Below are positions 1-5,892 of a stretch of 6,069 nucleotides of DNA, one piece after another. The DNA comes from a virus (taxonomy: Duplodnaviria; Heunggongvirae; Uroviricota; Caudoviricetes): IMG/VR virus record IMGVR_UViG_2713896896_000013; one strand, 5' to 3'. The stretch's first letter is position 1, and the number at the start of each line of letters is the position of its first letter. Made by a program: the position numbers and the translations under genes. The notes beneath the pieces were generated by a model that made no database searches, was not told the DNA's origin, and saw only the letters and a program-made list of their open reading frames with translations.

Positions 1-1428
1 GTGAAATTATTCAGATTCTCTAAAGTAAAAATTGCAGAGCTGCCAACGCCGGAGCATGGACAGGCCGAATATGGTGATACGGAGGTTAACGGGCTGCGTG
101 TCCGTGTGGGTTCGTCTGGTGTGAAAAGTTTCTGCATTTCCCGTAAGCGTAACGGAAAATTTATTCGTGCAACGCTGGGGCGTTTTCCTGATCTGAGCGT
201 GGATAATGCCAGGGCGAAAGCAATGGAACTTCTCGGAGAAGTCGCCACAACGGGGATAAATCCGAACATAGCGAAGCGCACGAACAACAAGGCCATGATA
301 ACGCTGAATGAGGCACTTGAAGCCTACATAAAAAATCGTGGCCACCGCCTGAAACCCGCCACAGAAAAACAGTACCGCAGCATATTACAGAATTATTCCG
401 GTGACTGGATGGTGCATACCCTCGCCAGTATTACCCGCGAACGTGTGGAACAGCGGCATAAGGCCGTTACCGACGGGGCTGTATGGTTCGGTGCTGATAA
501 AACCACGTTACGGGCTGGGGTTGGTACAGGAAGCAAGGCACAGGCCGATTTATGGGCGCGTGCGCTGCGTGCTGTGTGTCGGTTTGCGCATGATCATTAC
601 CGTGATGATGCGGGTAATACTCTTTTACCGGATCCGCCGACGCTTGTACTGAGCACAAAACGGCAGTGGCACGGAACGGTAAGAAAAACGGAACGTATCC
701 GCCTGCATGATTTTCCCCGCTGGTTTGCTGCTGTAGCTGCTGTACGCGACCAGGGCGAACAGGAAAGGGATGATATAGCGGTGACGGTATGTGATGCCGT
801 GGAAATGGCGCTTTTTACCGGACTGAGGAAATCAGAAATTTTTGGCCTTACGTGGGATCGCGTGAATATGGGCGGTCGTTTTTTCTGGATAGACACCACG
901 AAAAACGGGGATCCGCTCGAATTACCGATTACTGATACGTTGCGGGAAATGTTCCACCGTCGACTGAAAATAAAAAACGCTGATGATGTTCTGGTGTTTC
1001 CTGGTGTGAAGGGCGTTATCCAGGAGACACGGCACATCATAGACCGGATAAGCGCGGCTACTGTTCCTGAGTCGAACGATGAAATGCTCTCCCCTGTACC
1101 ATTCAAATGGCACGATGCGCGCCGGACGTTCGGGACGGTTGCCGAACTGGTGGGCGTGGGTAATTACATCCTCAAGCGCCTGATGAATCACCGTACTATG
1201 CGAAGTGCCGACGTAACGCAGGGATATTTACATTTTGGTGCTGATGAACTGCTGGAGCCAGCGTCACGGATAGAACGGGCAATTCTGGAACATGCCGGGC
1301 TGGTGGAGAGTAAAAAATCTATCGATGCGCAATTGCTTTCCGCACTGGAGAGTATGAGTGACAGTGAGAAACGCGCATTACTATTTAGTATCGTTAATTC
1401 AAATGGTGGTTTGAATGTCAGAAAATAA
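1..1428 (+). CDS. int: Tyrosine-type site-specific integrase (phage integrase family, P4-like)
   Basis: 475-aa ORF starting at GTG at window position 1, so the upstream RBS is not visible and the N-terminus may be slightly incomplete. The N-terminal region resembles an integrase arm-binding domain (GLRVRVGSSGVKSFCISRKRNGKF...). The C-terminal half carries the tyrosine recombinase catalytic signature in order: R in LFTGLRKSE, H-x-x-R in WHDARRTFGT, catalytic Y in VTQGYLHF. Stop TAA at 1426-1428. A hand count of one stretch (61-120) gives 35/60 G+C. Confidence 0.9.
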   Translation: MKLFRFSKVKIAELPTPEHGQAEYGDTEVNGLRVRVGSSGVKSFCISRKRNGKFIRATLGRFPDLSVDNARAKAMELLGEVATTGINPNIAKRTNNKAMITLNEALEAYIKNRGHRLKPATEKQYRSILQNYSGDWMVHTLASITRERVEQRHKAVTDGAVWFGADKTTLRAGVGTGSKAQADLWARALRAVCRFAHDHYRDDAGNTLLPDPPTLVLSTKRQWHGTVRKTERIRLHDFPRWFAAVAAVRDQGEQERDDIAVTVCDAVEMALFTGLRKSEIFGLTWDRVNMGGRFFWIDTTKNGDPLELPITDTLREMFHRRLKIKNADDVLVFPGVKGVIQETRHIIDRISAATVPESNDEMLSPVPFKWHDARRTFGTVAELVGVGNYILKRLMNHRTMRSADVTQGYLHFGADELLEPASRIERAILEHAGLVESKKSIDAQLLSALESMSDSEKRALLFSIVNSNGGLNVRK

Positions 1429-2101
1429 AATCATTGCTGCAATAGAATTTGACCATAATGATGCGAAGGATATGAATACTATTGCAGATTATATTAGAGA
1501 TGAACTGGCGTCTTCTTTTGTAAAAAAAACGATATGCGATATGGCAAATATCACACCATCTAAAATGTCTCTGGAGGAGAGATTATCATTATCGTCAGAG
1601 ATAGAAAATAAGGATTTAAAAGTTAATATTTCTGTATGTGCCGGGTATGAAGATGATTTTGATAAAAAATTTAATAGTGCATATTCAGAATTCAATGATA
1701 TTTTGAAAGCTGCCATTATATTTGAAGTTCTTGGTTTCAACAGACTTGCAGATCAGTTACGTGAAAGATATGCGATTTTAGTGTCGGAGAATTTATTAAA
1801 ATCAGTACGTGATATAGCTAATGTAAAGAAAATTATCAGTGAAGACCGTAGTAAAGCAAAGAAAGGAAAAACAAACAGGCATAAATCAACAGCGTTATCT
1901 ATAGCTTGTAACACTTGGAAAAAATACCCTAATGCCAGTTTACCCGGGCTATCCGCAGAGATATACGCGCACTTACGCAATAAATGGAATGATGTCCCTG
2001 TAGTTGGGACTATAGAGAGATGGCTTAAGGAGTCGGGGATGAATCCAAAATTCCCGCAAAAAAACAGGGATTTTAAGTTAGTTACTGGAGACAAAGAATA
2101 A
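1415..2101 (+). CDS. Hypothetical protein, 228 aa, AT-rich accessory gene of unknown function
   Basis: Uninterrupted ORF with ATG at 1415 that overlaps the integrase stop by 14 nt, with a weak GGTGG Shine-Dalgarno at 1405-1409. A hand count of 1441-1500 gives 17/60 G+C, well below the flanking genes. The protein is rich in K/E/D/N/I and I recognise no catalytic motif, transmembrane segment or signal peptide. Confidence 0.6.
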   Translation: MSENKIIAAIEFDHNDAKDMNTIADYIRDELASSFVKKTICDMANITPSKMSLEERLSLSSEIENKDLKVNISVCAGYEDDFDKKFNSAYSEFNDILKAAIIFEVLGFNRLADQLRERYAILVSENLLKSVRDIANVKKIISEDRSKAKKGKTNRHKSTALSIACNTWKKYPNASLPGLSAEIYAHLRNKWNDVPVVGTIERWLKESGMNPKFPQKNRDFKLVTGDKE

Positions 2102-2242: not shown

Positions 2243-2431
2243 ATGCATTTAGAAAAAATGACCCGCAAAGAAGCCGCCGAGCATTTGGGGGTAAGTGTCC
2301 AGACTCTTGCTAACTGGGCGTGTACTGGCAAAGTAAAAATCCCTTTTCATAAGCTGGGGCGCAAAGTGCTGTATATGCGCACTGATCTCGATGCTTATAT
2401 TGCATCCACTCGCAGAACGCAGACGGTGTAA
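2243..2431 (+). CDS. alpA: AlpA/excisionase-family helix-turn-helix DNA-binding protein (putative excision or transcriptional regulator)
   Basis: Small ORF with stop TAA at 2429-2431. The translation MTRKEAAEHLGVSVQTLANWACTGKVKIPFHKLGRKVLYMRTDLDAYIAS matches the excisionase/AlpA-type HTH pattern (KEAAE-LGVS...T-..W......P..K-G.). The start is uncertain: in-frame candidates are GTG 2234, ATG 2243 and ATG 2258, none with a strong SD; 2258 gives the most family-typical N-terminus. Confidence 0.75.
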   Translation: MHLEKMTRKEAAEHLGVSVQTLANWACTGKVKIPFHKLGRKVLYMRTDLDAYIASTRRTQTV

Positions 2432-2482: not shown

Positions 2483-2570
2483 AGTGGGAATACACTAAAC
2501 ATAAGCCCGGCCATCATAGCGTTTTGCTGGCTGGTGGGCAATGTGATCAGTGTGGTGGCTTGCTGGTGGG

Positions 2571-2750
2571 CTATTCCTGTTCTTTGGCCTTGCGGCGCTG
2601 GCGGCGTTTGATCTCGCCTTTTGCGGCAGTAACTAAAAAACCGGCTGTACTTTCGCCAGGTTCTTTAAGTTGCTCAATATCATCCATTACTTCATGTGGG
2701 ATTCTGACAGTTGTCATTTGTGATTTTGCGTTCTTTGCACCAGTTGCCAT
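2571..2750 (-). CDS. Small ribbon-helix-helix-like DNA-binding protein (59 aa), putative transcriptional regulator
   Basis: Minus-strand ATG at 2748-2750 preceded by a strong SD AGGAGA (complement of 2758-2763) with a 7-nt spacer; stop TAG (complement of 2571-2573). Product: MATGAKNAKSQMTTVRIPHEVMDDIEQLKEPGESTAGFLVTAAKGEIKRRQRRKAKEQE. The pattern is a short beta-strand (TVRIP), helix, loop, helix and a basic tail, as in CopG/Arc-type RHH proteins. The 114-aa version in the ORF track adds a non-protein-like N-terminus with no RBS. Confidence 0.5.
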   Translation of the reverse strand: MATGAKNAKSQMTTVRIPHEVMDDIEQLKEPGESTAGFLVTAAKGEIKRRQRRKAKEQE

Positions 2751-2939
2751 TTCTGGATCTCCTAAAAATTGGTGTATGTCAGTATACGCAAAAAAAATGA
2801 TAAAAAAAGGCTTGAAGTGTATTTCACCAGTGAGTAAATTAAAAAGCAAAGGTGAAATACACCTGAAAGAGCAACGCCCCGCAGTGCTCGCAACACATGC
2901 AGGGCGTCTAACCACAAACCGTTAACAGGAGTAACGATT
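2751..2939. promoter_or_regulatory. Divergent promoter/operator region between the RHH-like gene (minus) and the icd-like operon (plus)
   Basis: Candidate + strand sigma70 promoter: -35 TTGAAG (2812-2817), 17-bp spacer, -10 TAAATT (2835-2840). Perfect 12-bp inverted repeat GTGTATTTCACC (2817-2828) / GGTGAAATACAC (2851-2862) with a 22-bp spacer, overlapping the -35/spacer and the predicted start region. Candidate minus-strand -10 TATACT (complement of 2781-2786). The promoter hexamers are weak-to-moderate matches only. Confidence 0.35.
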
Positions 2940-3137
2940 ATGGCTGTAAAACAGCATACCCCACGCCTAGCGCACACACAAACCGCCTTTGTATGGCGTT
3001 TTCTGGCACTGAGTGCCGGAGAATCCCAGATCATCCACGTCACCGCATGGACGGAACGCGAAGCGCGTAACCGTTGCCCGTCCGGCTGTATTGCCGTATT
3101 CGCTGCCCGTATCCGTCAGGGGGTGTGCCATGCCTGA
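2940..3137 (+). CDS. Small protein (65 aa), tentatively Icd-like (host cell division inhibitor Icd family)
   Basis: ATG at 2940 with SD AGGAG (2927-2931) and an 8-nt spacer; stop TGA at 3135-3137. The translation MAVKQHTPRLAHTQTAFVWRFLALSAGESQIIHVTAWTEREARNRCPSGCIAVFAARIRQGVCHA recalls the signature I remember for Icd-like small proteins of P4-like islands (F-W-R-F-x-A ... E-x-E-A-R ... F-A-A-R). The family assignment is from memory, not a search. Confidence 0.55.
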   Translation: MAVKQHTPRLAHTQTAFVWRFLALSAGESQIIHVTAWTEREARNRCPSGCIAVFAARIRQGVCHA

Positions 3138-3450
3138 TATATCAAAATACCAGTACCTGATTAATCCGCATTTTAACTGTGAGCATGATATTGCTAAAAA
3201 GGTTTATTCCGCTGCGGATATGGCTACTGACAATATATCAATGGGTATTGCATCAATTGGTAACCTGATGTGGCATGCGGCAGAAAATGAGGACTATGAC
3301 GAACAGACCATGCGCATTGACATGGGGAATATTGGCTTGTTACTGGCAATGCTTGGGCAGTTTGATATTTCGTTACGGTGCACCATTGAAAATGCCACAG
3401 ATGCATTAAATGCCATAAAGAAAGCGAATACTGATTCAAATCGGGGATAA
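3130..3450 (+). CDS. Hypothetical protein (106 aa)
   Basis: ATG at 3130 overlaps the upstream stop by 8 nt (ATGCCTGA), implying translational coupling; stop TAA at 3448-3450. Product MPDISKYQYLINPHFNCEHDIAKKVYSAADMATDNISMGIASIGNLMWHAAENEDYDEQTMRIDMGNIGLLLAMLGQFDISLRCTIENATDALNAIKKANTDSNRG is acidic with no motif I recognise. The longer track ORF from 3013 would overlap the icd-like gene out of frame and is not favoured. Confidence 0.6.
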   Translation: MPDISKYQYLINPHFNCEHDIAKKVYSAADMATDNISMGIASIGNLMWHAAENEDYDEQTMRIDMGNIGLLLAMLGQFDISLRCTIENATDALNAIKKANTDSNRG

Positions 3451-3456
3451 ATAATC

Positions 3457-3756
3457 ATGAGAACATATTTATCTGGCTTGACTGCCAGCGGTTATGCACA
3501 CCCCAAAATTATCCCCGGCGCTATTTATCTGGATAAGAACGGTAACAGAGTAACGGTAAAAGAACTGATGTTTGATCGTGTTTATTTTATCCGTGATGGA
3601 TATTCATTTCTTAGTTCGCTGAACGTGGAGATCTTTATTTGCAGATTCCGGCGGGAAATCCCGACTTCCAGAAATAACCATGTGTCACGTGTGGATGTGG
3701 ATAAAAAACTACAGGAACTGAAAAACATGATTGCCGCGTGGAGAGAGCAGAAATGA
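3457..3756 (+). CDS. Hypothetical protein (99 aa)
   Basis: ATG at 3457 with an SD-like GGGGA about 10 nt upstream. Its stop TGA (3754-3756) overlaps the ATG of the replication gene (3753-3755) in an ATGA arrangement. No recognisable motif. Confidence 0.6.
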   Translation: MRTYLSGLTASGYAHPKIIPGAIYLDKNGNRVTVKELMFDRVYFIRDGYSFLSSLNVEIFICRFRREIPTSRNNHVSRVDVDKKLQELKNMIAAWREQK

Positions 3757-5570
3757 AAAAAGCGCCAAATTTAAAACACCAGCCGCGTGACAAAATGACG
3801 GAAGTCATCATTTTTGCGGGTAGTGATGCGTGGGCACATGCGAAACAGTGGCAGGAACAGGACGGGCGACTGGCTGGCGATAACGTCCCTCCTGTCTGGC
3901 TTGGAGAGCAACAACTTGCCGAACTGGACAACCTGCAAATCGTACCGGACGGACGCTATCGCGTGCGTCTCTATCAGGCGGGGTTATTGCGTCCGGGGCT
4001 TGTTAATACCATCGGGCAGAAACTGGCAGCGGCAGGTGTCAGGGATGCTGATTATTATCCTGAAGGAATGCACAGCCAGAAACGGGAGAACTGGCGCGAA
4101 TATCTGGAACGTGAGCGGGGAGAGCTGGCGGAAAAGAAAAAGGTAGTTGAACTGCCTGTAAAGAAAAAAGAGCGGGTAAAAGACGATAACGCTTCATCAC
4201 TGGCACTTAACCAGATGGGAGCAAGTCAACGCGGCGAAGTTCTCCTGGCACATTATGGCGGTGAACTGGCGATTCATGCTGACTCTGACACTGTTCACCA
4301 TTACAACGGCGTTGTATGGGAGCCAGTACAGGATAAAGAATTACAGCGAGCTATGGCACAGATTTTCATTGATGCGGAGATCAGCTATTCGCAGAACGCC
4401 ATTAAATCGGCGGTCGATACCATGAAGTTAAGTTTGCCTGTTATGGGGAATACAGCCCGTAACCTGATTGGATTCAGTAACGGGGTATTTGATACCAGAA
4501 CAGGTAATTTTCGGGAGCATAACAAAAACGACTGGTTGTTAATTGCCAGTGAATTACCTTTCAGCCCACCAGCAGAGGGGGAAACGCTGGCAACACATGC
4601 GCCGAATTTCTGGAAGTGGTTACGCCGTTCGGTGGCTGAGAATGACCGCAAGGCGGATCGCGTACTGGCTGCATTATTCATGGTGCTGGCGAACCGGTAC
4701 GACTGGCAGTTATTCATTGAGGTAACAGGTCCAGGGGGAAGTGGTAAAAGCGTGATGGCGGAGATTTGCACCATGCTGGCGGGTAAGGCCAACACAGTAT
4801 CGGCAAGCATGAAGGCGCTGGAAGATGCAAGGGAACGCGCGTTAGTGGTTGGCTTTTCGCTGATTATCATGCCGGATATGACCCGCTACGCTGGTGATGG
4901 GGCAGGAATTAAGGCCATTACAGGCGGTGACAAGGTGGCAATTGACCCAAAACACAAAGCCCCCTACTCAACGCGTATTCCGGCAGTAGTGCTGGCGGTT
5001 AACAATAACGCCATGTCATTCAGTGACCGCAGCGGGGGGATCTCACGTCGTCGGGTGATATTCAATTTTTCGGAAGTTGTACCGGAGAACGAACGCGATC
5101 CAATGCTGGCGGAAAAAATAGAAGGTGAGCTGGCGGTAGTGATTCGCCATCTGCTTACACGGTTTGCTGACCAGGACGAAGCCAGACGCCTGTTATATGA
5201 GCAGCAGAAATCTGAAGAAGCACTGGCGATAAAGCGAGAGGGGGATTCGCTGGTGGACTTCTGCGGCTATCTCATGGCGTCGGTAATGTGTGATGGCCTG
5301 TTAGTGGGTAATGCTGAAATTGTGCCATTCAGCCCACGCAGGTATCTCTATCATGCCTATCTGGCTTATATGAGGGCACATGGGTTTGGTAAACCTGTAA
5401 CACTGACGCGCTTCGGTAAAGATATGCCGGGGGCAATGGCGGAATATGGCAGGGAGTATATGAAACGGAAAACGAAGCACGGTTTGCGTTCAAACGTGAC
5501 ACTGACGGAGGAATCAGAAGACTGGATGCCATCATGTGTATCGGTCACTAATGACGATAGCAAAAATTAA
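3753..5570 (+). CDS. Replication initiator with D5_N-like region and SF3-type P-loop helicase domain (P4 alpha-like / PICI Pri-Rep-like primase-helicase family)
   Basis: 605-aa ORF from ATG 3753 (the track gives a GTG 5 codons upstream at 3738). Walker A motif GPGGSGKS in FIEVTGPGGSGKSVM; candidate Walker B hydrophobic run plus Asp in LVVGFSLIIMPDM. The segment IGFSNGVFDTRTGNFREHNKNDW resembles the D5_N motif that precedes SF3 helicase domains in P4-family primase C-terminal-domain proteins. It is immediately followed by an iteron array. Stop TAA at 5568-5570. Confidence 0.88.
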   Translation: MKKAPNLKHQPRDKMTEVIIFAGSDAWAHAKQWQEQDGRLAGDNVPPVWLGEQQLAELDNLQIVPDGRYRVRLYQAGLLRPGLVNTIGQKLAAAGVRDADYYPEGMHSQKRENWREYLERERGELAEKKKVVELPVKKKERVKDDNASSLALNQMGASQRGEVLLAHYGGELAIHADSDTVHHYNGVVWEPVQDKELQRAMAQIFIDAEISYSQNAIKSAVDTMKLSLPVMGNTARNLIGFSNGVFDTRTGNFREHNKNDWLLIASELPFSPPAEGETLATHAPNFWKWLRRSVAENDRKADRVLAALFMVLANRYDWQLFIEVTGPGGSGKSVMAEICTMLAGKANTVSASMKALEDARERALVVGFSLIIMPDMTRYAGDGAGIKAITGGDKVAIDPKHKAPYSTRIPAVVLAVNNNAMSFSDRSGGISRRRVIFNFSEVVPENERDPMLAEKIEGELAVVIRHLLTRFADQDEARRLLYEQQKSEEALAIKREGDSLVDFCGYLMASVMCDGLLVGNAEIVPFSPRRYLYHAYLAYMRAHGFGKPVTLTRFGKDMPGAMAEYGREYMKRKTKHGLRSNVTLTEESEDWMPSCVSVTNDDSKN

Positions 5571-5581
5571 ACTTATGGAAT

Positions 5582-5815
5582 AACTGTTCACCACTGTTCA
5601 CCCTGTCATAAATATCTTTTATATCAGTATATTATAGGGTGAACAGTTGTTTATGAACTGTTCACCAAACTATTCACTGTTCACCTTTTTGATTGTTTAT
5701 TGAGCTTCAAGGGTGAACAGTGGTGAACAGTTGGTGAATAGTTTTTGTGAAACTGTTCACCCCTTAACATTATGAATTAAAAGAGAAAATATCAAAAGGT
5801 GAACAGGTGAAGGGT
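5582..5815. repeat. Iteron array, candidate replication origin (9-mer GGTGAACAG / CTGTTCACC, both orientations)
   Basis: CTGTTCACC at 5584-5592, 5594-5602, 5658-5666, 5677-5685 and 5753-5761. GGTGAACAG at 5638-5646, 5712-5720, 5722-5730 and 5798-5806, plus a degenerate GGTGAATAG at 5733-5741 and partial copies (ctgtca 5603-5608, ctattcac 5670-5677, ggtgaaggg 5806-5814). Tandem copies are phased at 10-11 bp. AT-rich stretches at 5606-5637 and 5762-5797 could act as unwinding elements. The core octamer TGTTCACC is, as I recall, the alpha-protein binding iteron of the P4 ori and crr. Confidence 0.75.
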
Positions 5816-5892
5816 TAAAACGCAAAAATTTTAATTTACTGCTGTGAGATAAAGCCTATGACAGCGAAGCACACCAAAACAACAGGAGGGGA

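Follow-up and report, generated by a model that had tools for sequence, protein, structure and literature searches.

A predicted antisense RNA and a divergent ribbon-helix-helix protein at the Icd-like leader gene of the replication operon in an Escherichia coli phage satellite

The DNA analysed here (IMG/VR virus record IMGVR_UViG_2713896896_000013, Caudoviricetes; the whole stretch of 6,069 nucleotides [nt] is termed the window herein) carries at positions 2940 to 3756 three small genes that lead into a replication gene (rep): a leader gene for a 65-amino-acid (aa) protein of the Icd/Kil family, orf106, and orf99, which encodes a DUF4222 protein. We propose that a phage satellite has here the 5′ half of its early/replication operon, which is built like the left operon of P4 and the immI operon of P1, and that the Icd-like leader, gated by both an antisense RNA and a repressor, controls the replication operon, with its state passed on by translational coupling and polarity. 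We give this reading a probability of roughly 60%. The initial annotation of the stretch had described a candidate helper-interaction or host-interference module of coupled small genes; it had recognised neither the predicted antisense RNA nor the candidate repressor and its putative operators.

In the proposed mechanism, the Icd-like open reading frame (ORF) would act as a gate, its ribosome-binding site (RBS) and start codon being the target of a cis-antisense RNA of about 80 nt, and the sense promoter would be flanked by two operators for a divergently encoded ribbon-helix-helix (RHH) protein. With the Icd-like ORF untranslated, orf106, DUF4222, and the helicase would not be expressed either (junctions of −8, +6, and −4 nt), and silencing would act through lost translational coupling and probably also through Rho-dependent polarity over the C-rich leader and Icd-like region. 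Helper infection would lift the repressor, sense transcription would outrun the antisense RNA, and the whole train of genes would be made.

The comparisons presented here rest on 160 IMG/VR loci with two Icd-like subtypes, nearly all from E. coli or Shigella and phylogenetically non-independent; a profile scan of genome contigs with the Icd alignment yielded one locus. Judging from its folding and conservation, the region around the Icd-like start very likely encodes a cis-antisense RNA of about 80 nt that forms two hairpins, termed A and B (coordinates of all features are collected in Table 1). Folding of positions 2838 to 2948 as a single sequence gave −43.3 kcal/mol for the minus strand (z = −5.1) and −27.9 kcal/mol for the plus strand (z = −1.7), and RNAalifold, applied to an alignment of 25 distinct relatives, recovered the two minus-strand hairpins at −28.8 kcal/mol, compared to −5.0 kcal/mol on the plus strand. 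In this alignment, 98.3% of the pair cells are canonical on the minus strand and 82% on the plus strand; 94 cells hold G·U pairs on the minus strand, which are C·A on the plus strand, and only 2 cells show the converse. Compensatory changes on both sides were found at 7 pairs, none of 500 shuffles reached the observed values, and pairing fell to 37 to 49% in slid controls. U-tracts follow the hairpins on the minus strand only. The covariance model R1 was built from this alignment and, in the second Icd subtype (70 loci), gave exactly one match per locus, always opposite the Icd-like gene and, in 69 of the 70, ending 4 to 5 nt inside it; 99.4% of the cells in this set are paired, again with many wobble pairs. 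P4 and P1 gave no match with R1.

The candidate promoter of this RNA lies within codons 5 to 14 of the Icd-like gene, and transcription would start near A2945. Its −35 element, TTGTGT, is invariant in the first locus set and not recognisable in the divergent L001 subtype, and all 44 distinct sequences have TATGCT or TATGAT as the −10 element in spite of changes in the encoded residues (Q/N and T/I). A terminator scan flagged positions 2864 to 2850 on the minus strand; the hairpin at 2850 to 2864 was rejected as the antisense terminator, being also operator O2 (see below), and hairpin B is the conserved terminator-like element. That the minus-strand RNA is merely the 5′ leader of the RHH mRNA is less likely, because hairpin B resembles a terminator and separate promoter-like sequences for the RHH gene are seen by eye further on.

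A C4/CI RNA (RF01695), which would be expected from the presence of an Icd-like gene, was rejected by an Rfam scan of the window: neither C4/CI RNA nor isrK nor a1b1 gave a match there even at an E value of ≤1, with positive controls at 74.9 bits for P4 and 71 to 74 bits for five relatives. No Rfam family reached its threshold, and sub-threshold matches fell only at 2870 to 2947, to SymR (RF01809) on the minus strand (29.6 bits, gathering threshold of 61 bits) and to the R1162-like antisense RNA (RF00043) on the plus strand (28.9 bits, threshold of 55 bits). Since these scores are far below the thresholds, membership in either family is excluded, and the likeness is one of size and two-hairpin shape. 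In 40 genomes sampled from RefSeq, no RNA is annotated at this place, and literature searches on Icd-like, on YlcI/YnfO, and on phage-inducible chromosomal islands (PICIs) with antisense RNA returned no description of this RNA. A preprint on the small RNA Pas was rejected as a lead, as its "icd" is the gene used in multilocus sequence typing. The cis-antisense RNA appears to be new relative to Rfam, RefSeq annotation, and the PICI descriptions consulted, and represents a candidate RNA family absent from Rfam and RefSeq annotation.

Divergent from the operon lies the 59-aa RHH gene, a candidate repressor gene. The encoded protein (2574 to 2750, minus strand) matches NF041551 with 64 bits (cutoff of 30) and also phrog_949, an equivalent coding sequence is annotated by the NCBI pipeline PGAP in relative L001, and a terminator-like site for the gene is located at 2482 to 2460 on the minus strand. 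The predicted sigma-70 promoter of the operon, P(icd), was not flagged by a consensus promoter scan and would give a transcript starting near 2847; the same layout, with TTGACA or TTGAAG, a −10 element, and operators located both within the spacer and at the transcription start, is found in 44 distinct upstream regions. The putative operators are the two halves of an inverted 12-nt repeat, GTGTATTTCACC and GGTGAAATACAC, located at −123 and −89 relative to the Icd-like ATG. In the relatives, the repeat sequence changes jointly with the RHH variant, at the same two places, as expected for repressor-operator specificity sets; we infer that the RHH protein represses the operon.

In relatives L003 to L083, two unrelated RHH-type families occupy the divergent position, YlcI/YnfO and one that ends in ...RGIEPKG, and every RHH variant has its own pair of 10- to 14-bp repeats around the sense −10. 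Inspection by eye of the L020-type loci showed that, at about −80 to −130 from the Icd-like ATG on the minus strand, the U-tract after hairpin B overlaps a good promoter for the RHH gene (TTGATT, 16 nt, TACAAT) and that the RHH start codon overlaps the −35 element of the sense promoter. These overlaps suggest autoregulation and interleaved, face-to-face promoters.

When the window was aligned with L001 (13568 to 15062), the flanks were 97 to 99% identical, and window positions 2568 to 3095 gave no blastn alignment. This block extends over the RHH gene, both operators, the promoter, and the antisense RNA and through about the first 52 codons of the Icd-like gene. Such a non-aligning block between near-identical flanks argues that these elements move as one module of about 530 bp, and in sequence 2568 to 3095 looks like a single exchanged immunity cassette. 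The pairing of an antisense RNA with swappable RHH/operator sets likewise appears to be new in comparison with Rfam, RefSeq, and the PICI descriptions consulted.

Reading of the sequence together with a program-made ORF list, in which all four ORFs are found, located the three small genes upstream of the replication gene as the initial annotation had placed them. The Icd-like gene and orf106 overlap by 8 nt (ATGCCTGA, 3130 to 3137), orf106 and orf99 are separated by 6 nt (ataatc), and the orf99 stop and the rep start overlap by 4 nt (ATGA, 3753 to 3756). The identical four coding sequences are annotated by RefSeq/PGAP in a 98%-identical genome, and a Shine-Dalgarno (SD) sequence stands at normal spacing before every start (AGGAG at 2927 to 2931, GGGGG at 3119 to 3123, GGGGA at 3443 to 3447, and GGAGAG at 3740 to 3745). 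Junctions were counted in the 151 loci that have an Icd-like gene, a DUF4222 gene, and rep. The 4-nt overlap between the DUF4222 stop and the rep start is present in all 151 (ATGA in 150 and GTGA in 1) and is kept although identity among the DUF4222 proteins drops to about 30%. In 106 loci, an ATG is found 8 nt ahead of the Icd-like stop, irrespective of the gene that follows. The conservation of the junctions exceeds chance, and translational coupling along the chain would fit it. Ratios of nonsynonymous to synonymous change (pN/pS) were 0.37 for the Icd-like gene (0.22 for the domain only), 0.37 for orf106, and 0.60 for orf99 (with pS saturated), indicating that all three small ORFs are under purifying selection and behave as coding sequences. 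In itself, the chain of genes is nothing unusual: it is already annotated and belongs to the P4/P1-type operons led by Icd/Kil.

The Icd-like assignment made in the initial annotation held up well. The protein matches NCBIfam NF033153 (phage_ICD_like) with 63.1 bits (cutoff of 25); the same model scores P1 Icd at 52.6 bits and the P4 Kil region at 73.9 bits. Comparison by hhalign of the profile of the window relatives with P1 Icd gave a probability of 96.3% (E = 1.6e-9, 46 columns). Plain tblastn and BLASTP of the Icd-like protein did not detect the P1 homologue, and tblastn of both Icd subtypes against 50,697 phage records recovered only the satellite-like vB_KppS-Ant and neither P1 nor P4; hidden Markov model (HMM) or profile methods were required to detect the homology to P1 and P4. 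The last 65 codons of the P4 "cI ORF137," a stretch that we take to be Kil, begin at a Met codon and can be aligned over their full length with the 65-aa protein of the window. By these profile matches, the Icd-like protein is homologous to P1 Icd and to the P4 Kil-region stretch.

The layout is also that of Icd/Kil genes: the Icd-like gene is the first translated cistron, is overlapped by the next gene, and has its SD and ATG under the predicted antisense RNA. In the P4 record, C4 RNA is located at 8420 to 8507 within ORF137 (8168 to 8584), and epsilon (7888 to 8175) overlaps the stop of ORF137 by 8 nt, so that the analogy of position with P4 that had been drawn earlier is closer than was then apparent, with an Icd-like C terminus of ORF137 and epsilon starting 8 nt before its stop. 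In the P1 record, the c4 target sites a2/b2 are followed by icd and then by ant1 (4-nt overlap), and icd is described as "apparently required for expression of ant."

By analogy, the Icd-like protein is probably also an inhibitor of growth or division. The P1 record notes that Icd inhibits cell division, P4 Kil is described as host killing or inhibitory (PMC10111431), and a six-gene prophage locus of ECOR61 with an Icd-like gene and a primase causes phage-triggered growth arrest that is abolished by removal of the Icd-like gene (bioRxiv 10.1101/2023.04.06.535777).

An excess of C over G (C/G of 1.2 to 1.5) extends over 2847 to 3084, that is, over the leader and Icd-like region, and the downstream genes are without such a bias. 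The same bias is found in P4 kil (X51522, 8168 to 8365) and P1 icd (NC_005856, 48470 to 48691) and is compatible with a conserved Rho-utilisation region. In P4, the Rho-dependent terminator timm has been mapped to X51522 positions 8365 to 8209 (PMC3177188), which lie inside the Icd-like coding stretch (8365 to 8168), and translation of kil/eta prevents termination at timm, as PMC10111431 summarises Forti 1999.

Five relatives (L015, L034, L058, L067, and L072) have a tandem arrangement in which an Rfam C4 RNA (71 to 74 bits) follows about 100 to 300 nt past the first Icd-like gene; L015 additionally has the a1b1 target element of C4. These C4 RNAs sit within a 154-aa "Ash-like" ORF whose C terminus is a second Icd-like domain. 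The tandem relatives thus appear to have two antisense/Icd gates in series before rep, and the repeated association of C4 RNA with a second Icd-like domain argues that Icd-like ORFs are a recurrent partner of antisense control. A further Icd-like domain was seen in L166 (LR881103.1, vB_KppS-Ant), a 16.5-kb record labelled "induced prophage" that is actually a satellite of this kind; at 2715 to 5826, it carries a 324-aa Eta-like ORF with a terminal Icd-like domain, two small ORFs (8-nt and 4-nt overlaps), a primase, and a capsid gene.

Several observations weigh against a gated leader operon. The weakest link of the model is the antisense promoter, which matches only 7 to 8 of 12 consensus positions, lies inside coding sequence, and was missed by the promoter scan. 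An interruption (UUGCUCUUUC) of the U-tract that follows hairpin B in the window makes the true 3′ end of the RNA uncertain; a further minus-strand hairpin could extend it (Table 1). The loci, nearly all from E. coli or Shigella, are phylogenetically non-independent, and fewer independent events underlie the covariation than the counts suggest. An SD stands before each cistron, so that each could also be initiated without coupling; stoichiometric expression with the replication protein, which the initial annotation had drawn from the overlapping junctions, does not follow from them. The DUF4222 type does not follow the Rep type (in L006, DUF4222 is 48% and Rep 91% identical), which argues against a tight, specific DUF4222-Rep protein pair. 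Finally, the published induction model for Gram-negative PICIs involves AlpA, and no repressor or antisense RNA is mentioned (10.1101/2022.09.08.507074).

The three small proteins might instead be accessory factors of replication, with DUF4222, perhaps together with orf106, acting on Rep or the origin (in loading, in specificity, or as a brake on copy number like Cnr) and with coupling setting their ratio to Rep; we regard this as unlikely, though it deserves serious consideration. The case for it centres on orf99. The initial annotation had assigned this protein, like orf106, to no family; residues 16 to 67 match Pfam PF13973 (DUF4222) with 61.4 bits (cutoff of 27), and the protein also matches phrog_285. 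Conservation across the loci marks DUF4222 as a fixed core partner gene of rep in the operon, the overlap between the two being present in all 151 loci; the protein is basic, and its AlphaFold2 model shows a small SH3-like beta-barrel (strands within 23 to 56) followed by a C-terminal helix (78 to 98), a fold commonly involved in nucleic acid or protein binding. ORF106 of the P4 record, directly upstream of alpha, is moreover cnr, a regulator of alpha. Yet orf99 has no similarity to P4 Cnr (E = 7.8), no likeness to Cnr/DUF5375 was found, DUF4222 and Rep variants recombine independently, and orf106 is missing from two thirds of the relatives. The orf99 model is of low confidence (predicted local distance difference test [pLDDT] score of 66.6) and was built on a shallow alignment, and its best matches in the Protein Data Bank (PDB), to barrels of the SH3, KOW, and Tudor types, are all nonsignificant. 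A literature search on DUF4222 returned no described function, and tblastn of orf99 and blastn of positions 2750 to 3760 gave no match in the 50,697-record phage collection.

The view closest to the initial annotation, in which the small proteins form mainly a helper-interaction or host-interference module (epsilon-like or host blocking) and the overlaps ensure coexpression with Rep, is doubtful, somewhat more so than an accessory role in replication. It draws on orf106, which stands in the exact place of P4 epsilon, directly after the Kil/Icd ORF and with the same 8-nt overlap, and which is small, acidic, and helical like many phage inhibitor proteins; the growth arrest caused by the Icd-like/primase locus points in the same direction (bioRxiv 10.1101/2023.04.06.535777). 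Its surroundings are mosaic, too. In the 151 loci, between 509 and 1,642 nt separate the Icd-like stop from the rep start, and this interval holds 1 to 6 small ORFs with junctions of −11, −8, −4, −1, +1, or +5 nt. The ORFs in this slot belong to about 16 families, all of "unknown function" in PHROGs and none in Pfam, which suggests fast-evolving accessory functions. As one of these families, orf106 is present in 49 of the 151 loci; these presence counts and the variability of the slot identify the Icd-like and DUF4222 genes as core and orf106 as exchangeable cargo.

The homology searches did not favour such a module. Neither orf106 (hhalign probability of 0.2%) nor orf99 (BLASTP E = 0.23 over 10 residues; DUF4222 hhalign probability of 0.03%) has similarity to P4 epsilon, orf106 gave no alignment with P4 ORF106/Cnr (DUF5375), hhalign against Cnr gave a probability of 0.06%, and neither protein resembles P4 ORF137 in sequence or profile; the suggestion that the two genes might be counterparts of epsilon thus found no backing beyond position. 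The initial statement that orf106 belongs to no recognised family was in part incorrect, since it matches phrog_15327 at 1e-66; it has no match in Pfam, NCBIfam, or PADLOC, and its relatives number only 19 among 1.84 billion representative proteins. PADLOC found no defence system among the window proteins, including the three small ones. The AlphaFold2 model of orf106 (pLDDT of 82.8; helices at 19 to 51 and 58 to 105) had no significant match in the PDB or BFVD, only generic helical hairpins. The profile and structure searches that had been proposed for the small proteins therefore identified the Icd-like and DUF4222 families and gave no significant fold match for orf106 or orf99. The invariant position of DUF4222 in 151 of 151 loci also marks it as core rather than accessory, and because it is universal in the loci, a helper-derepressor or host-interference role is unlikely for it; such a role is plausible only for the variable cargo gene orf106. 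The helper-interaction view is compatible with the gated leader, as it concerns what the cargo does once expressed. The small-ORF slot appears to be new relative to Rfam, RefSeq annotation, and the PICI descriptions consulted and is a place to look for new phage-interference or counter-defence proteins.

It is improbable that the structure at 2864 to 2945 works in cis on the plus-strand mRNA, as a hairpin of the 5′ untranslated region that would mask the start codon (a translational attenuator or thermosensor), with no antisense transcript. The start codon and SD lie in a helix or loop region on either strand, part of hairpin B persists on the plus strand, which is also the strand of the sub-threshold R1162 match (28.9 bits), and the antisense promoter is weak. 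The strand asymmetry described above, however, weighs against it: the wobble pairs (94 versus 2 G·U cells), the extent of pairing (98% versus 82%), the RNAalifold energies (−28.8 versus −5.0), a plus-strand z score of only −1.7, and U-tracts on the minus strand only. In the second subtype, moreover, 3 of 5 pairs of helix 2 are wobble pairs on the minus strand, which are C·A mismatches on the plus strand. That the small ORFs are not genes and occur by chance within a long leader 5′ of rep, as their shortness and the lack of a characterised function for two of them might suggest, is hardly credible given curated HMM matches for two, a strong PHROG match for the third, PGAP calls for all three, pN/pS values below 1 throughout, and frames and junctions kept across divergent relatives.

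The gated leader has its closest parallel in P4, whose left operon reads PLE, CI RNA, kil/eta, epsilon, orf151, cnr, and alpha. The window resembles P4 in its P4-type integrase, its alpha-type helicase, and a 65-aa Icd/Kil ORF that stands first ahead of the replication gene; in both, the next gene overlaps the Kil/Icd stop by 8 nt, a small RNA (predicted in the case of the window) controls the operon at that ORF, and the ORF region is C rich, that of P4 containing timm. The window differs in having no C4/CI RNA, isrK, or a1b1, whereas P4 scores 74.9 bits for C4. Its RNA would be cis-antisense to the RBS, whereas that of P4 is a processed, trans-acting piece of the same transcript; it has a divergent RHH gene with putative operators, whereas P4 has no protein repressor; none of its downstream small genes is related to epsilon, orf151, or cnr; and its capsid genes are of the capsid-forming PICI (cf-PICI) type, not sid, delta, and psu. 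The immI region of P1 and P7 (c4, icd, and ant1/ant2) shares with the window a homologous Icd, a leader icd overlapped by the next gene, and antisense targets on the icd RBS. Its payload is an antirepressor and not a replication gene, its regulator is the trans-acting C4 RNA, and the window protein is without the C-terminal tail of P1 Icd.

In the immI region of P22, the divergent RHH repressors Mnt and Arc act at operators over Pant, and the cis-antisense RNA sar is directed against the RBS of ant, with the promoters facing each other. The window resembles this arrangement in combining a divergent small RHH protein, as candidate repressor, with a short predicted cis-antisense RNA at the RBS of the first regulated gene; no Rfam match to sar was returned in the window, and payload and leader ORF differ. 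Plasmid replicons (CopA-tap-repA of R1, RNAI-repY-repZ of IncI-alpha and IncB, and R1162) also have a stem-loop antisense RNA against the initiation region of a leader ORF that is coupled to rep. The window differs from them in having two more cistrons between leader and rep, in being an integrated satellite, and in a leader with a conserved domain, compared to a dispensable peptide.

Among satellites, the islands EcCICFT073 and EcCIEDL933 (PICIs and cf-PICIs) share with the window the order of int, alpA, small genes, pri/rep, ori, and packaging/capsid genes, the size, and the tRNA-adjacent site (10.1101/2022.09.08.507074). The descriptions of these islands that were consulted differ in naming AlpA as the inducer activated by the phage, with mention of neither a repressor and operators nor an antisense RNA; our results suggest that the start of the replication operon is under an additional control layer of the P4/P1 kind in islands otherwise described as AlpA switched. 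Such a layer would bear on the silence of the islands, on how they discriminate between helpers, and on phage-triggered growth arrest by Icd-like/primase loci. More tentatively, and at slightly less than even odds, a large group of E. coli and Shigella PICIs and cf-PICIs might have its replication operon under a hitherto undescribed, exchangeable immunity cassette of about 530 bp, in which a small RHH repressor with operators of its own is combined with a new family of cis-antisense RNAs of about 80 nt that occlude the RBS of an Icd/Kil leader ORF and replace C4/CI, with the leader doubling as a growth arrest effector and the slot serving as a hotspot of small anti-phage or anti-host genes such as orf106.

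TABLE 1 Coordinates of genes and predicted regulatory elements in the window
Feature	Position	Strand	Remarks
Integrase, P4 type	1-1428		
Gene for 228-aa protein	1415-2101		Overlaps integrase stop by 14 nt
AlpA/excisionase-type helix-turn-helix gene	2243-2431		
RHH gene, 59 aa, YlcI/YnfO family	2571-2750	−	Divergent; candidate repressor of the Icd-like/rep operon
Predicted sigma-70 operon promoter P(icd)	2812-2840	+	−35 TTGAAG 2812-2817, 17-nt spacer, −10 TAAATT 2835-2840
Putative operator pair	2817-2828 and 2851-2862		Inverted 12-nt repeat, GTGTATTTCACC and GGTGAAATACAC; flanks the −10
Further hairpin and U-run	2864-2840	−	Possible extension of the RNA, then about 105 nt long
Predicted cis-antisense RNA, about 80 nt	2864-2945	−	Covers SD and start codon of the Icd-like gene
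Hairpin B	2908-2873	−	GC rich, then U-rich tract; intrinsic-terminator-like
Hairpin A	2945-2910	−	Start codon in stem, anti-SD CUCCU in loop
Predicted antisense promoter	2953-2981	−	−35 TTGTGT 2981-2976, 17-nt spacer, −10 TATGCT 2958-2953
Icd/Kil-family leader ORF, 65 aa	2940-3137	+	TGA at 3135-3137; pI 10.6, 59% GC, C>G
orf106, variable-slot cargo gene	3130-3450	+	ATG at 3130, TAA at 3448-3450; acidic, pI 4.6, two-helix hairpin
orf99, DUF4222 protein	3457-3756	+	ATG at 3457; basic, pI 9.9; 4-nt overlap with rep start
Replication gene, P4 alpha-type D5_N/DUF5906/Pox_D5 helicase	3753-5570	+	Start within ATGA at 3753-3756; Pfam, phrog_864
Presumed iteron origin	5582-5806		Directly after rep

The replication protein matches phrog_864 at 4e-192 and is 48% identical to P4 alpha over the helicase part (tblastn); its TIGR01613 score is under the cutoff of that model. 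Residues 1 to 160 (3753 to 4230) match only phrog_2850 and show no Pfam primase or Toprim domain, despite the annotation as "DNA primase family protein." The presumed origin contains at least ten copies of the iterons GGTGAACAG and CTGTTCACC, in both orientations, around AT-rich spacers (5582 to 5806).

The window is the left part of an island of about 11 kb, which in E. coli DETEC-P169 is located between nfeF and tRNA-Ile/mug. The full island in L001 continues, beyond the window, with a ClpP-protease/major-capsid fusion, a tail assembly gene, and DUF1441. With int, an alpA-type regulator, rep, ori, its own capsid genes, and a tRNA-adjacent site, the island has the gene set of PICIs and cf-PICIs, and by gene content the window is assigned to an E. 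coli satellite of the PICI/cf-PICI type. The L001 copy carries a truncated tail protein pseudogene, and that island may be partly degraded. Next to the integrase gene, the gene for a 228-aa protein (1415 to 2101) has a GC content of 34%, compared to a window average of 47%. Pfam, NCBIfam, PHROGs, and PADLOC contained nothing that its product matched, and the gene may serve as accessory or defence cargo. Parts of the window match 1,755 of 5,426 complete E. coli genomes, and 1,188 of these 5,426, about a fifth, carry a relative of the leader region.

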